Shown here in pieces: positions 41,801 to 49,404 of a stretch of 64,000 nt of DNA. Position numbers and translations under genes: made by a program. Under the pieces are notes generated by a model. The model was not told where the DNA came from. It ran no database searches and saw only the letters and a list, made by a program, of their open reading frames with translations. How positions within the stretch are numbered: position 1 is the first letter of the stretch; every line of letters begins with the position of its first letter. The DNA comes from Leptolyngbyaceae cyanobacterium (GTDB lineage: Bacteria > Cyanobacteriota > Cyanobacteriia > Phormidesmidales > Phormidesmidaceae): NCBI GenBank assembly GCA_965263355.1, contig CBDHHL010000029.1:10442-74441 (forward strand). The letters run 5' to 3'.

Positions 41801-41972
41801 CGTTAAACCTGCTTAACACACCACAAAGCATGATATCATCATTGTTGTACGCCAAGGGTTTAGCCCTGGCTTAGGAAATAATGCACAACTAAGACGGCAT
41901 AATGGTTAGACCTTTCTCACCATTCGTGAGTTAGTGAATGCAGCTGCTGGCAGCTGAAAATCGGCATCTACC

Positions 41973-42934: not shown

Positions 42935-42956
42935 ACTTTATCATTCCGTAATTCCT
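42935..42956. repeat. Left direct repeat of the CRISPR cassette (partner 45553-45574)
   Basis: ACTTTATCATTCCGTAATTCCT vs ACTTTATCACTCCGTAATTCCT, 21/22 identical. Confidence 0.85.
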
Positions 42957-44635
42957 CTTTTCTTGTGGTTCTTTGCGGCGTTAACATCTGCATTTTGCTT
43001 CTGTTCAAATAGGCTACAGCTCTCATTTACGCAAATAAACGTGTCTTGGGCTGGCCTGATGCCTTTCCCTCCGCAACAATGACAGCGTTGTGATGAGTAT
43101 CTAGCCTCCGTCTCTATGTATAATTTCCCGGCTTCCTCTAATTTAGATTTTGTTTTAGTTCTAAGGTCGCCCATACAGGCTATTTTCAATGATCTGTTCA
43201 ATCCTGCCTTAGCTGTTCTGCCGTTTTGCTCGTAATAACTTCCATCTTCAGCTAACTTAGGCGTTGTCTGCCTCCCCATGTTAGTTAACGCCGTAGCCTC
43301 CCAGGCGATGACATCATAAGTTCTGGCTAACCTGGTTGACAGCTTATGATTGAAAGCATTTGAACTATTAACAGCTCGCTCATGCAGCCTGGATATTTTA
43401 TTCCTAAGTTTTTGCTCGTTATTAGTGGCTTCACGCTTCCCACGCTTCCATATTTGTCCTAGCCGCTTATCATTTTTTTCAGTCATAATGTCAAGCTTGG
43501 ATTGCAGCTTTTCAATATGATTGTGTATTCGTTGTCTGCTTTCGTTAGGATTAAATAAATGACCTTCGTCAGTCGCTACAATTGCCTTAACGCCAGGGTC
43601 AATGCCCGCCATATGCCCGGTTCGTTTAGCGCATTTTGAGTCTTCTATTAGCAAGTATGGCAGCTCATTTTCTATTGACTTTTTCTTGGCTAATGCCGCT
43701 TGATAGTCTTCACTGTTAGCTAACGCCTTGGCTTGCTCCTTTTTCCCTTTAATGCCATCAATAACTTTTTTCTTGATAGCGATTAAAACTCTTTTTTGCC
43801 GTTTAAGCTCTAATCTATTTTCTTCTTCCGCTTCACTTTGAGTAGTTAAGCATAGATAGAAGCCACTCGGTTTTAATATCAGTTTGTAAGTCTTTATTAC
43901 ATAGCCTTCGAGTCTTTTTGAATAGCTACGATCGCACGGTTCTAAAACTAAGCCTTGACCGTCGAATTGCCCTTTTTTGAACGGGATGGCTTTTTGATTA
44001 TTGTTCAGCGTGCTAATTTTACACTGCTTGCCGTCCTTGTACTTTGGCTGCTTTCTAGCGGGCAGTTTCCCGTCTAAATAAGCCCTCCAGGCAACCTCAA
44101 AGTCAGCTAGTAGCCCCCCAACAAAATCGCTATTGCACGTTAATTCATCAAGACCCTGAGAACTTCGTGACGCATTTAGCAACGCCATATTGTCTAGTCC
44201 CCATGATTTCCCCTTTAGCTCACGTATTAATGGGACGCCTTCCTTGAAATAAGGGACTTCGATATATTTATGGGGTTCTGGCTTTATCCGCCTATATGGC
44301 TTATCCCCAGTCACTAACTCATAGCCAAGTTTTGTTTTGCCATCGCCATAGTGAATCAAAGGGGCTTTATCTGACTTCTTAAAATACGGACCTCCTTTAG
44401 CAATCTGACAAGCTGCGCCATTCCAACCGCCACTCTTTGAAAAGCGTAACGGCGTTCTAATGCAGCCTGATAAGTCGACGCCTTTCTTTTCTACCCAGGC
44501 ATACCACTCAAGGCAATGATTATGTAAGGCTACGGCCCGTACATAATTCCACAACCATTCAAGCTCTCTGCAAATTTTCTCGTATGTAATTAGTGTTTCA
44601 GGAGTCGGCTGGACTTTTACCTTGATCGTCTTCAT
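42941..44635 (-). CDS. TnpB/Cas12-family RNA-guided nuclease, CRISPR-associated (C2c8/type V-U-like), 564 aa
   Basis: N-terminal KVKVQPT...WLWN; RuvC-I GIDPG, RuvC-II IAWE, YSSQRCHCCG...C Zn finger, RuvC-III NADVNAAKN; larger than typical TnpB; no tnpA; adjacent array. Subtype is tentative. Confidence 0.88.
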   Translation of the reverse strand: MKTIKVKVQPTPETLITYEKICRELEWLWNYVRAVALHNHCLEWYAWVEKKGVDLSGCIRTPLRFSKSGGWNGAACQIAKGGPYFKKSDKAPLIHYGDGKTKLGYELVTGDKPYRRIKPEPHKYIEVPYFKEGVPLIRELKGKSWGLDNMALLNASRSSQGLDELTCNSDFVGGLLADFEVAWRAYLDGKLPARKQPKYKDGKQCKISTLNNNQKAIPFKKGQFDGQGLVLEPCDRSYSKRLEGYVIKTYKLILKPSGFYLCLTTQSEAEEENRLELKRQKRVLIAIKKKVIDGIKGKKEQAKALANSEDYQAALAKKKSIENELPYLLIEDSKCAKRTGHMAGIDPGVKAIVATDEGHLFNPNESRQRIHNHIEKLQSKLDIMTEKNDKRLGQIWKRGKREATNNEQKLRNKISRLHERAVNSSNAFNHKLSTRLARTYDVIAWEATALTNMGRQTTPKLAEDGSYYEQNGRTAKAGLNRSLKIACMGDLRTKTKSKLEEAGKLYIETEARYSSQRCHCCGGKGIRPAQDTFICVNESCSLFEQKQNADVNAAKNHKKRGITE

Positions 44636-44798
44636 TATTTTGTACGTCGTTTTGTGGCAGCTCTGGCAGCATATCAATAAAGCGTTCCAATAGGTCTGCT
44701 ATCGATATATCCCAAAGTCTACAATACTGCTCTAGCTTTTGTTTGCGACTTTGCTTGATGCGCGCGTAAATCCTGCCTTCTCTATTCTCTTTTCCCAT
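44598..44798 (-). CDS. Ribbon-helix-helix regulator upstream of the nuclease
   Basis: RIYARIKQSRKQKLEQYC...SIADLLERFIDML; overlaps the nuclease start. Confidence 0.75.
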   Translation of the reverse strand: MGKENREGRIYARIKQSRKQKLEQYCRLWDISIADLLERFIDMLPELPQNDVQNNEDDQGKSPADS

Positions 44799-44814
44799 TT
44801 ATATTAAAAAATAC

Positions 44815-44843
44815 TTGGCGTACAAAATATAACACGCTAATAT
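44815..44843 (+). promoter_or_regulatory. Candidate promoter for ncRNA/array
   Basis: TTGGCG-17-TAATAT in an AT-rich gap, just before the structured region. Confidence 0.55.
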
Positions 44844-44849
44844 AAGGAC

Positions 44850-45040
44850 ATCGCAGTTTGGGCGACAAGGCAGCGGAAACGTTGTTGGATGGCTTCAGCG
44901 CTAAGGTTCTCTAGGGGGCTATGGGTATCTTCTGTCGGGAAACCGATAAACACCAGCCGAAAGGCAAGATAGGAGCAAAAGGAGTCCGTAAGGCCCTTAT
45001 AGATTCGCCGGATCTATGGCGAACAGTCTCAACTTTTTTT
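44850..45040 (+). ncRNA. Putative tracrRNA/omegaRNA-like structured RNA
   Basis: Four GNRA-capped hairpins (44870-85, 44934-47, 44956-65, 44986-93), enclosing helix TATCTT/AAGATA, terminal TTCGCC/GGCGAA stem and T7 run at 45034-40. Confidence 0.7.
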
Positions 45041-45080
45041 GGCAAAGCTAAGCGAGGCCAAAAGAAGAACCTTGAAAAAC

Positions 45081-45099
45081 AGGGATTAAAGCTTTGGCA
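45081..45099 (+). other. 19-nt perfect anti-repeat in the leader
   Basis: AGGGATTAAAGCTTTGGCA is the reverse complement of repeat nt 3-21. Confidence 0.85.
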
Positions 45100-45171
45100 A
45101 AATTGCCATTTTATGAGCTTTGCCAGAATCGCTCATAAAAGCCTTGCGGCTAAAGGGATGCAGCTGTTTAA

Positions 45172-45554
45172 GCTGCCAAATCTTTTATCCCTACCAAGGG
45201 ACTGAAACCATGATGGGGCGATTCTGGATATTGATTCCCTACCGCTGCCAAAGCTTTAATCCCTACTAAGGGACTGAAACGCGGCAAAACCATTTGCTTT
45301 AGCTACGTCATCGCTGAGGCTGCCAAAGCTTTAATCCCTACTAAGGGACTGAAACAGCAGGTCAAAATCTGGAGAATTAGCAATCGCGATGGCTGCCAAG
45401 GCTTTGATCCCTACCAAGGGACTGAAACTAGCAATTGATAGCGATGAGTAAGGCATCACGGGCTGCCAAAGCTTTAATCCCTACCAAGGGGCTGAAACGA
45501 GTCAATCTCTTGGATCACAGCCAAGCTTTTCTTGCGCTGCCAAGGGACTGAAAC
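45172..45554 (+). CRISPR. CRISPR array: five 37-bp repeats plus one 19-bp internally deleted repeat; five spacers
   Basis: Consensus GCTGCCAAAGCTTTAATCCCTAC(C/T)AAGGGACTGAAAC at 45172, 45244, 45319, 45392, 45462; GCTGCCAAGGGACTGAAAC at 45536. Unique spacers of 35, 38, 36, 33, 37 nt. Orientation from the 3' GAAAC and the degenerate last repeat. Confidence 0.97.
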
Positions 45555-46486: not shown

Positions 46487-47020
46487 GTGCTATCTATGGC
46501 CACTATCCCAGACAGTTCAGGGTTACCGACAAGCGGGACAGGCACTGGACGGAGACTTACTCGCGCTGATCTCCAGGCAATGATCGACAAATCGGTCACA
46601 AGCAGTATAGGCGAGGCGTTTCGACTCTCTGGGCAAGCTGACGAGCGGAATGCTGCTAGACTCCGAGACTTGGAAGCCAGGATGGAGACTTTAATAAAGA
46701 AAGTCTCTGACAGCAGCTCGACAATAGCAGAGATAAAGGCTGGCTACGACGAATACAGGGAATGGGGCAGCAAAGTGGCTGAGGCTGTAGCGGCCACTGG
46801 AGGAGATGCTAGAACGCTGCACAGGACTATGGAACGGGTTGATGGCCTTGTTGAGATTGCTCAGTTGTTATTGAGAGTGCTAGAGCCAACAAGCAGGGCG
46901 ATCAATTGGATGATCGACCGACTGCACCGGCTGGACAAAAGAACATACAGTCACAAAGACGGGGCGGATATCACTAACCTAGTGAATGGCCCCCGACGAA
47001 GATCGAGTGATCGCGGGTAG
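46487..47020 (+). CDS. Coiled-coil hypothetical protein
   Basis: Heptad-rich ORF divergent from the FHA gene. Confidence 0.5.
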   Translation: MLSMATIPDSSGLPTSGTGTGRRLTRADLQAMIDKSVTSSIGEAFRLSGQADERNAARLRDLEARMETLIKKVSDSSSTIAEIKAGYDEYREWGSKVAEAVAATGGDARTLHRTMERVDGLVEIAQLLLRVLEPTSRAINWMIDRLHRLDKRTYSHKDGADITNLVNGPRRRSSDRG

Positions 47021-48069
47021 TGGCGCAGGGCGACCGAATAGGTAACCCTGCGCCATGTCACAGCCGATTGCCTTAAGCATGTCGGCCTGTTGCTGGGTTT
47101 CCACGCCTTCAGCGATAACTTTGATGCTGAGTTTTTGCGATAGCGCCACAATTGCGTCAACCATTACTCTGGATTCGCGAGCAGGCAGGCCACTAATAAT
47201 AGATCTGTCGAGCTTTACCAGGTCAACTTGACCCTTCAGCAATCTATCGTAGCTGCAGTATCCGGTGCCGAAATCGTCCAGGGCGATCTTTACGCCTTTC
47301 CCCCTAGCTGACTGAATCCGGCTCTGAATCTCCTCAGAAACAGCCTCAGTCTCCAATATCTCCATATGCCCTCTAGCAGGCAGCTTTTGATCGTGCCAAT
47401 CTGCTCTAGCTAGAGTGAATGGGCTGATATTAAAGCTGATCCACTGGCCAATCTTGCTTGAATCTGCCTGGGTTCGCTCGATTACCCAGTAGCACAGCAA
47501 GTGTTCACTGTTTGCCTTTCTCAGTAAAGGCAAGAAATCCCTGGAAAGATTAATGCATTGTCTTTTGCCCATCTTGACAACGCCTCATAACCAACGGTCT
47601 CATCGGATCTTAGGTCAACTATCGGCTGATAATGCAGGGCAAATCCGTTGTGGTTAATTGCGTATTTTATTTCTGAAAGCCTTTGTGTTTCAACCTCTGT
47701 CAGCTCTTTGTCGCCAAGTTTGCTGACTTGGGAAAAGAAATAAAGAAATTCTCCAGACTCAGAATGGAATCCTTCACAGTGCAACGTGCAAGAGATCCAT
47801 TCTGCTGTTTGTCCATGCTTATAACGTTTTTTCAGTGTGAAAGATTTAAGTTCTCCATTGATTACGCTGCGGAATGGGTTGACCTGAGGCGTTAGATCGT
47901 CAGGATGACTGATTTCCTGAAACGTTAGGCGCAGCAACGTTTCTCGTTGATAACCCAGTATTTCACACAGAGTCTCATTTACATCCCAGAACTTTCCGTC
48001 TGGCCCAACAATAGCAGCCCCTATCAGGCTGTTCCGTTTAAGTAGCTCTGGGATTCTATGCATCATCAA
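46979..48069 (-). pseudogene. PAS-EAL c-di-GMP phosphodiesterase, split by a 1-nt frameshift
   Basis: PAS (VNETLCEILGY...ISHPDD), YQPIVDL..GYEAL.RW, then in another frame DFLP...FNISP, MEILE, LDDFGTGY, VKLDRS, IAEGVET, QGYLFGRP. One extra G at 47539-41 restores ..FPGDFLP. Confidence 0.88.
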
Positions 48070-48225: not shown

Positions 48226-49404
48226 TTAGCTTGCAAGTAAATCCAATAAGCTTAGCTGTTGCTTTTTGGGGGCTTCCTCAGTCGTTGCGGTCTGTTGTTT
48301 TAGCCAGTCTAATCTAGCCTGCTGCGATACAAAGTTTTGTTCTTTGCCGACTTTGCTACGGGCTACATCTGCCCAATGAGGATCAATATCAATCCCGATA
48401 AAATGTCGTCCATGCTTTTTGGCCGCTACTAGAGTATTGCCGGAACCACAAAAGCAATCTAGAACTACTGAATTAGGTTTAGAACTAGCGTTTATTATGT
48501 GCGCCATCATGGCCAATGGCTTCTCGCATGGGTGCTTACCTGGGTAGCTTTGCACTGTCGGGAAGTCCCATATATCCGTGTAGGGTACGTCTGACGATAC
48601 AATAAACGGTCTACGTAGTTCTTCGTATTGCTGACGTAGTTCTTCGTATTGCTGACGTAGTTCTTCGTATTGCTGACGTAGTTCTTCGTATTGCTGACGT
48701 AGTTCTTCGTATTGCTGACGTAGTGAGTTAGGCCCAAACAATTGGCGTAACCATTGATAATTATGTTTTGTTGGCAATGCCCATTGAATAGAGGTGAACC
48801 AGTGGCCAGCCATACCCGTTACTGTTCGGCTACCTGTTTTTTTTTGAAAAGCTTCAGCAACTTGTCTTATTGAAAATCCAGCCTCCATTCTCTCTCCATC
48901 CAAATACGCCCGCAACGGTTCAAAAACAAACCCGCGCAACTCATCACACTTTGCCTGATAACCTGCTTCGCCTTTAGCTGCGTTATCTGCGCCGTAATGT
49001 TCACAAAAGATAATTGATTCCGATGCAGGGAAATAGCCTCTAAGAATTTCTTTGCATGATCCTTTATGAAATCCTTGTTCCTTTCGCCATCGAATATTGT
49101 TCAGCACATTAAACCGATCGCTCAACAACACCTCAACTCGTGCTGACATTTTTGTGCTCGCGAAACAATACAGGCTGCCATTAGGTTTTAATATGCGTTG
49201 CCATTGCGCGGCTAGCTGGTCAATCCATCTCAAGAATTCTGCTGAATTATCCCAGGCGCGATCCCACCATTCGAATTTGCCTTTAGAACCGCCCCCTTTT
49301 ACCTTAAAAAAAGGCGGGTCAGTTGCTATTAGATCAATGCTGCTATCAGGGATGCCGTTCATCACTTCCAAGCAATCGCCTTGAATAACTTGATTTAATT
49401 CCAT
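48226..49404 (-). CDS. Orphan N4-C/N6-A DNA methyltransferase (beta order) with HTH/coiled-coil insert
   Basis: GDCLE, TDPPF, HPCEKP, VLDCFCGSG; no restriction partner nearby. Confidence 0.92.
   Translation of the reverse strand: MELNQVIQGDCLEVMNGIPDSSIDLIATDPPFFKVKGGGSKGKFEWWDRAWDNSAEFLRWIDQLAAQWQRILKPNGSLYCFASTKMSARVEVLLSDRFNVLNNIRWRKEQGFHKGSCKEILRGYFPASESIIFCEHYGADNAAKGEAGYQAKCDELRGFVFEPLRAYLDGERMEAGFSIRQVAEAFQKKTGSRTVTGMAGHWFTSIQWALPTKHNYQWLRQLFGPNSLRQQYEELRQQYEELRQQYEELRQQYEELRQQYEELRRPFIVSSDVPYTDIWDFPTVQSYPGKHPCEKPLAMMAHIINASSKPNSVVLDCFCGSGNTLVAAKKHGRHFIGIDIDPHWADVARSKVGKEQNFVSQQARLDWLKQQTATTEEAPKKQQLSLLDLLAS
48613..48724. repeat. Perfect 21-bp tandem repeat x5.3 (QQYEELR heptads)
   Basis: ACGTAGTTCTTCGTATTGCTG at 48613, 48634, 48655, 48676, 48697, plus a partial copy. 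Confidence 0.97.

Follow-up and report, generated by a model that had tools for sequence, protein, structure and literature searches.

The 64,000-nucleotide stretch of cyanobacterial DNA analysed here (the window) has, at 44850-45040, a short hairpin-rich stretch that sits between a minus-strand nuclease gene, cas12p, and a plus-strand CRISPR array; does this stretch encode a guide-binding RNA and, if so, for which system? A sequence-only reading had proposed a tracrRNA or scaffold RNA rich in GNRA tetraloops, and all of the motifs that it named are found where it placed them:

44870, plus strand: GCAGCG-GAAA-CGTTGT hairpin
44934, plus strand: GTCGG-GAAA-CCGAT hairpin
44956, plus strand: GCC-GAAA-GGC hairpin
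44986, plus strand: CC-GTAA-GG hairpin
44926 and 44966, plus strand: TATCTT and AAGATA, a candidate junction-closing helix
44994, plus strand: CCCTTATAG
45024, plus strand: CAGTCTC
45034, plus strand: T7 run

The GNRA loops indeed read correctly on one strand only, with four GNRA-closed hairpins on the plus strand and none on the minus strand. Their enrichment over chance is modest: at least four such hairpins with stems of at least two pairs appear in 2.8% of 5,000 dinucleotide shuffles and in 1.6% of 191-nt tiles of the window, and at least three with stems of at least three pairs in 1.0% and 0.3%, respectively. Pair probabilities are mostly above 0.85 for the three GAAA hairpins and the last stem. 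The proposed three-way junction closed by TATCTT/AAGATA is possible; we go no further because the probability of this helix is low, 0.05 in the free RNA and 0.2-0.3 with the family core enforced, and its fold, within 0.4 kcal/mol of the best fold of the domain, is one among several near-equal ones. The final stem and the T7 run that was said to follow it are both present, but 10 nt lie between them and no terminator was called; in homologues, the T run opens a conserved leader motif.

We conclude that 44850-45030 (plus strand) is very probably the tracrRNA of a phage-encoded type V-P (Cas12p) system whose crRNA is caught by two duplexes. The hairpins are real, and the type of system is already published, not new; this copy of the RNA is a structural and architectural variant, with an extra folded domain and a back-to-back arrangement with the nuclease gene. 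The preprint on Cas12p ('Cas12 hacker-1', type V-P; PDB 9JFS and 9JG3) gives in its main text a family of 12 members, 11 of them more than 70% identical, and also names a divergent 'hacker-2' (bioRxiv 10.1101/2025.01.20.633832). For Cas12p-1, the same text describes a 185-nt tracrRNA with 118 nt resolved, six stems, and a 37-nt repeat; a pseudoknot of tracrRNA G7-U10 with crRNA -1C to -4A; contacts of C77/G78/A79 with U42/U43/G64; a GTN PAM; and activation by thioredoxin via C127 (10.1101/2025.01.20.633832). The words 'leader' and 'cyanobacter' occur zero times in that main text. In the window, the stretch is flanked by the following features:

42941-44635, minus strand: cas12p, 564 aa, ATG at 44635, best solved relative PDB 9JFS
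45034-45171, plus strand: leader, opening with the T7 run, with motifs common to the leaders of homologous loci
45172-45554, plus strand: CRISPR array of five 37-nt repeats ending GAAAC, five 33-38-nt spacers, and a truncated 19-nt last repeat

The protein, within the 500-700 aa size range of these miniature Cas12 nucleases, matches 9JFS (E 9.7e-113) in two stretches, 15-71 and 67-575. At 246 of 529 aligned residues (46.5%) it is identical to the protein of L002, the locus of the solved system, which itself matches 9JFS over 613/613 residues. The RuvC triad D346/E446/D550 is intact (D378/E478/D582 of Cas12p-1), the TB-domain cysteine C76 is kept (C127 of Cas12p-1), and the PAM-contact residues D197/N261/Q262/K332 map to D148/N213/Q214/K289. 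The hydrophobic pocket retains W44, Y45, W47, L55, I59, L63, C76, and I78, with the changes L51K, I110C, and V113T; W102 and F105 are unaligned. A model of the complex with thioredoxin scored 0.85 compared to 0.02 for the best control, a score that may reflect likeness to 9JFS; the mark used was reached by 116 of 157 solved pairs and 2 of 215 mismatched ones. Contacts agree by at least 95% between runs, the pLDDT of the partner is at least 92, and C76 touches the active-site loop. Residue 58 is a second cysteine (I110 in Cas12p-1) that lies beside C76 in the modelled interface and is common to several clade members.

In a quick tree, the window and L001 proteins fall into a 15-row clade (SH-aLRT 99) without the REC insert of about 50 aa and without the C-terminal tail; the window protein also has a longer PI region than Cas12p-1. 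C2c8/Cas12u2 (V-U2) gave the best curated profile match and was rejected: NCBIfam NF038192 scores 172.4 bits, below its 350-bit cut-off (184 bits with PADLOC), and its best stretch covers residues 346-537 alone. Cas12f profiles match the C-terminal RuvC part alone.

To check the RNA itself, we collected 20 full-length loci (14 viral, 6 genomic) by alignment scans and built a covariance model from 13 homologous tracrRNAs, with the window left out and L002 in. The sole match in the 64 kb at E ≤ 1 is 44850-45033 on the plus strand (49.9 bits, with a rough E of 1.8e-12). In the alignment of the 13 homologues, a hand-set core of 20 pairs has 94.2% of its cells paired compared to 85.0 ± 1.0% after shuffling, and 9 of the 20 pairs show double changes compared to 4.0 ± 1.3 (0 of 500 shuffles as good). 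The window RNA keeps all core pairs of the family via double changes, its own being U-A for C-G in the outer pair of stem 1 (C-G in 13/13 homologues), AA/UU for GG/CC in stem 4, and UUC/GAA for CCA/UGG in stem 5. When the L002 RNA, downstream of its gene, is counted from ACCGCAG, the numbering agrees with the preprint and recovers G7-U10, U42/U43/G64, C77-G78-A79, and the 118-nt core. The six-stem scaffold, with its contact between stems 3 and 4, has every stem in register in the window, though this is not the free minimum:

44850-45030, plus strand: tracrRNA core, 181 nt compared to about 118-119 nt in the solved system; covariance-model match 44850-45033
44851-44865, plus strand: stem 1, its loop GTTT (44856-44859) being anti-repeat 1, positions 7-10 as in the preprint
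44869-44886, plus strand: stem 2, GAAA-capped, sequence and loop variable across the family
44892-44976, plus strand: stem 3, GCTTC (44892-96) with GGAGC (44972-76), enclosing the expansion 44897-44971
44979-44998, plus strand: stem 4, with a GTAA loop (44988-44991), counterpart of G76-C77-G78-A79 of L002
45004-45023, plus strand: stem 5, with a conserved CCGGA..TATGG cap and compensatory outer pairs
45024-45030, plus strand: anti-repeat 2, CAGTCTC, pairing with repeat positions -5 to -11

The GNRA richness is therefore partly incidental: only the GTAA loop occupies the conserved tetraloop position of the family, and of the GAAA loops one caps the variable stem 2 and two lie inside the stem-3 expansion. 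Other searches added little: a 5' motif scan found 28 viral stretches, comprising 15 tracrRNAs and 13 chance matches; locus scans run with a single sequence confirmed none of 6 viral and none of 74 genome candidates; and a metagenome scan gave one full-length locus among the 80 kept, too short for use. No RNA data set is among the sequencing runs listed as containing the stretch; contigs of three runs from one study cover 44764-45139 with 14-18 differing letters, among the matches listed.

The array supplies a further line of evidence. The proposed pairing of the GTTT loop (44856-59) with AAAC corresponds to the published G7-U10 pseudoknot; every repeat in the window ends AAAC, and the loop is invariant in the 16 array-bearing modules compared. 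The pairing of CAGTCTC (45024-30) with GGGACTG is also borne out, forming 7/7 pairs with repeat positions -5 to -11 and covarying with the cognate repeat. Across 13 lineages, anti-repeat 2 makes 5.69 of 7 pairs with its cognate repeat compared to 4.53 ± 0.24 with permuted ones (0 of 20,000 permutations as good, in a test that ignores kinship); the test used a fixed offset, at which L083 scored 2 pairs, compared to 7 by eye after a one-base shift. In contrast, CCCTTATAG (44994-45002), suggested as another anti-repeat, shows no preference for the cognate repeat and was rejected (-6.18 compared to -6.27 kcal/mol; 58% of permutations do equally well); its letters form the 3' strand of the conserved stem 4 and a conserved ATAGA linker.

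The idea of a tracrRNA with a split repeat:anti-repeat is thus supported by the covariance-model match and by covariation. Its likeness to Cas12f and Cas12k scaffolds holds for the split pairing type, and for the pseudoknot on the 3' end of the repeat, but the family is Cas12p (V-P). Cas12k (V-K) has an inactive RuvC and Tn7-like tnsB/tnsC/tniQ genes; the RuvC triad in the window is intact and no Tn7-like genes were seen beside the locus. TnpB omega-RNA is a single RNA that overlaps or follows the 3' end of its gene, with no array, whereas the window RNA precedes the 5' end of the gene on the opposite strand and is accompanied by an array; 3' of the nuclease gene there is no covariance-model match. 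Cas12k and Cas12p have the GTN PAM in common, according to the main text of the preprint (10.1101/2025.01.20.633832).

Compared to Cas12p-1, the window has the same stems 1-5, G7-U10 pseudoknot, stem-4 tetraloop, short second duplex, 37-nt repeat ending AAAC, intact RuvC, TB cysteine, PAM-contact residues, and phage host, and in neither case is cas1/cas2 seen beside the locus. It differs in that its protein is 46.5% identical, in a separate clade without the REC insert and tail; stem 3 encloses 77 nt instead of 18; and the gene is head-to-head with the tracrRNA rather than upstream in tandem. The nearest locus in hand, the IMG/VR phage L001, encodes a protein of the same clade (50% identical to that of the window) and has the same core and an expanded stem 3 (42 nt) with two GNRA hairpins (GAGA, GCAA). 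Its expansion is shorter and without evident sequence likeness to that of the window; the locus is tandem, and its family structure is the minimum.

By homology, a working cycle can be sketched. Transcription would start at 44850, from a sigma-70-like promoter:

44815-44843, plus strand: putative tracrRNA promoter, -35 TTGGCG at 44815-20, 17 nt, -10 TAATAT at 44838-43, then 6 nt to +1 at 44850

The spacing equals that in the L002 locus (TTGACA-17-TAATAT-6); the boxes have 8 of 12 consensus matches and fall under the promoter-scan threshold. The transcript would fold into stems 1-5, with the stem-4 GTAA loop docked on stem 3 as in the solved homologue and the 59 extra nt of stem 3 forming a peripheral domain. 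Because of the homology and covariation found here, we propose that each crRNA would be captured via two short duplexes, the GUUU loop with the AAAC end and CAGUCUC with repeat positions -5 to -11. The RNA pair would then load the nuclease made from the divergent gene and, judging from Cas12p-1, the loaded nuclease would, with host thioredoxin, cut DNA beside what is probably a GTN PAM, its targets presumably being rival mobile DNA. New spacers are presumably acquired with Cas1-Cas2 borrowed from the host, via the leader.

The sole site found by the promoter scan, 44839-44868 on the minus strand (1 compared to 1.7 expected), is oriented towards cas12p and shares bases with the -10 box of the tracrRNA; that tracrRNA and cas12p have back-to-back promoters is no more than a possibility. 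A 12-nt box, CTTGGCGTACAA, is common to the region upstream of the integrase (41845-41861, minus strand) and the tracrRNA promoter (44809-44825, plus strand), and TTGGCGTAC occurs at just two sites in the window, in the same two regions; the common box is possibly a shared -35 or regulator site.

Where the RNA ends is less certain. The stretch delimited by the sequence-only reading, which left the nuclease unnamed, ends 5' of a further element:

45081-45099, plus strand: perfect 19-nt inverted copy of repeat positions 3-21 (19/19 complementary)

It may be a third anti-repeat or a leader element. Its duplex is worth -33 kcal/mol with repeats 2-5 and -22.6 kcal/mol with repeat 1. A longer tracrRNA, reaching to at least 45099 or joint with the array, in which this copy serves as a third anti-repeat for double-strand processing, is a possibility that we take seriously but hold to be rather unlikely; it extends the best explanation and does not replace it. 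Besides the full complementarity to the 5' half of the repeat, five homologues have a long anti-repeat right after anti-repeat 2, where the window has none; no hairpin directly adjoins the T7 run; and the 185-nt tracrRNA in the main text of the preprint also extends into the leader. Inverted partial copies of the own repeat occur in the leaders of L001, L006, L008, L081, L082, and L083, with the window's the longest, and perfect, among those compared. Leaders fit their cognate repeat better than others (10.2 compared to 7.8; 1 in 20,000 permutations, with kinship uncontrolled and the L324 leader trimmed by hand). However, several homologues (L002, L005, and L085) lack both a long anti-repeat and a well-matching copy in the leader, and, given its conserved position in the leader, the copy may serve spacer integration as a DNA motif or form part of a leader-repeat hairpin. 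In type VI and II systems, leader-repeat hairpins block an extra crRNA, according to excerpts of PMC13187072; that logic does not carry over directly to type V.

A second question is whether the tracrRNA, with the two duplexes assigned above, can fold at all. Stem 3 encloses 14-32 nt in 13 homologues, 42 nt in L001, and 77 nt in the window:

44933-44948 and 44956-44965, plus strand: expansion hairpins, both GAAA-capped
44926-31 with 44966-71, plus strand: possible helix in the expansion

The family fold of the window RNA has an energy of -48.7 compared to -58.5 kcal/mol for the free minimum, and stems 1, 3, and 4 have free probabilities of at most 0.04 because 44908-44930 can pair with 44983-45004. 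This competing duplex (-21.0 kcal/mol) beats 97% of shuffles. Stem 3 has a probability of 0.36-1.0 in the 14 homologues parsed (L085 was unparsable) compared to 0.0 in the window, and folding of successive prefixes rescues stem 1 alone, and early on. The competing pairing of stem 4 is absent in L001 and L002.

These data could mean that the RNA is a tracrRNA by descent but that the insertion misfolds this copy, making the module weak, conditional, or decaying. The gap of about 10 kcal/mol speaks for this; the array is short, with a degenerate first repeat and a last repeat truncated to 19 nt, and none of the five spacers gave a target (within the loci fetched, no match at up to 3 mismatches per 20 nt, and E=2 at best in phages). 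We nevertheless consider this reading improbable: the core pairs are all kept via double changes, the nuclease, with 7 + 7 close cluster members, is intact, and the energy models omit the pseudoknot, docking, and protein. Moreover, the free probability of stem 1 is also at most 0.06 in 4 of 15 homologues with ordinary loci, so that folding assisted by protein and crRNA appears to be normal.

As to the origin of the expansion, an expansion-specific pattern search found one match, unrelated, and a decayed repeat was rejected since 30% of 6,342 background tiles score equally well. Speculatively, the 59-nt domain stands in for the REC insert and tail absent from the protein clade; this idea of an RNA-for-protein trade rests on two loci, the window and L001, and short-REC proteins also occur outside the clade. 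The most ambitious version, in which this Cas12p branch traded its REC insert and tail for a GNRA-capped stem-3 domain, perhaps with the competing helix as a switch, and the inverted cassette is self-mobile by TnpB-like homing, is a long shot. As for a chance hairpin cluster in a leader or 5' UTR with no role as a tracrRNA, the folding energy of the stretch is unexceptional (z -1.12 and -1.55) and Rfam has no match for it at the gathering score, but the independent model match, residue-level fit to the solved tracrRNA, and covariation make this hardly credible, and its homology side is refuted.

What the tracrRNA assignment offers is a smaller Cas12p, 564 aa and 46% identical, whose RNA can be mapped base by base onto a solved structure. 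The comparison tells the structural GNRA loop from the others, and stem 3 is seen to accommodate a 59-nt domain; this matters for the engineering of guides and for how RNA and protein trade off between TnpB and Cas12. With the type of system already published, the advance is an incremental one, unless a function emerges for the expansion or for the terminal guide described below.

The setting is that of a mobile element. From the matches among 35 ORFs scanned (tape measure, DnaB, Erf, integrase, and scaffolding proteins) and from an XisF-like recombinase match below its own cut-off, the window looks like a temperate cyanophage; a neighbouring gene has a Leptolyngbya homologue. The cassette lies among a serine integrase, small ORFs, and an FHA-like gene, and no cas1/cas2 was seen beside it. 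The gene is head-to-head with the tracrRNA, compared to a gene-then-tracrRNA tandem in 18 of the 20 full-length loci, 17 of which show the array (L009 ends before it). There are partial precedents: two phages have a second module that is divergent and lies 2-3.5 kb upstream, and the array-less L010 has a divergent copy of the RNA some 70 nt from its gene. Two phages (L324/L323 and L343/L332) each carry two tracrRNA-array modules and one nuclease; the repeats of the modules differ and the anti-repeats match their own repeat.

A direct repeat brackets the cassette:

42935-42959: left copy, 25 bp (23/25 identical), supplying the last cas12p codons
45553-45577: right copy, formed by the 3' end of the FHA-like gene and immediately following the last repeat

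It gives cas12p and its FHA-like neighbour one and the same GITE ending. The cassette was probably inserted at the stop codon of the neighbouring gene, because the GxTE ending is native to that gene (a 72% homologue ends GMTE) and the sister nuclease cluster ends otherwise. As a consequence of such an insertion, the flank after the last repeat matches the end of cas12p at 19/20 nt, and a guide made of the truncated repeat and this flank would be directed at the allele that lacks the cassette. The homing part is weakened because TAC occupies the PAM position and the nearest GTA is one base out of register. Searches for the empty site gave 0 matches to the direct repeat and none among 18 candidates for the neighbouring gene. 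In the contig data, no joint among the 11 listed leaves out the cassette, and the listed pieces include none that connects the gene start with the RNA.

Relatives without arrays were also found. Cylindrospermopsis phage Cr-LKS4 (OQ625504.1; L352-L360, L159) has 10 covariance-model matches, dispersed tracrRNA-like genes, and L010/L011 (G006, G007) have 4 each; these are array-less Cas12p-like phages, and the nuclease triad is intact. The tracrRNA-like genes of all three have their own -10 box and the loop GTTC. Some dispersed copies run on into a fused hairpin, then GAAC and a tail that is unique, most clearly L359 (CCATTGG/CCAATGG, then GAAC), and apparently represent natural single-guide RNAs. 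In a sister clade, the loop is GTTC in 14/14 copies read; 3 of the 14 run directly into a short hairpin plus GAAC, in 5 others a GGAAC-type word follows at a greater distance, and in 6 no such word occurs within 260 nt. GTTC/GAAC thus reads as a compensatory change, seen in few cases.

Two minor observations concern genes beyond the array. At 48592-48745, six 21-nt tandem copies in a DNA methyltransferase gene encode (QQYEELR)n. At 46979-48069 on the minus strand, two overlapping ORFs both match phrog_11823; they resemble PAS and EAL portions of a single signalling protein, perhaps frameshifted.
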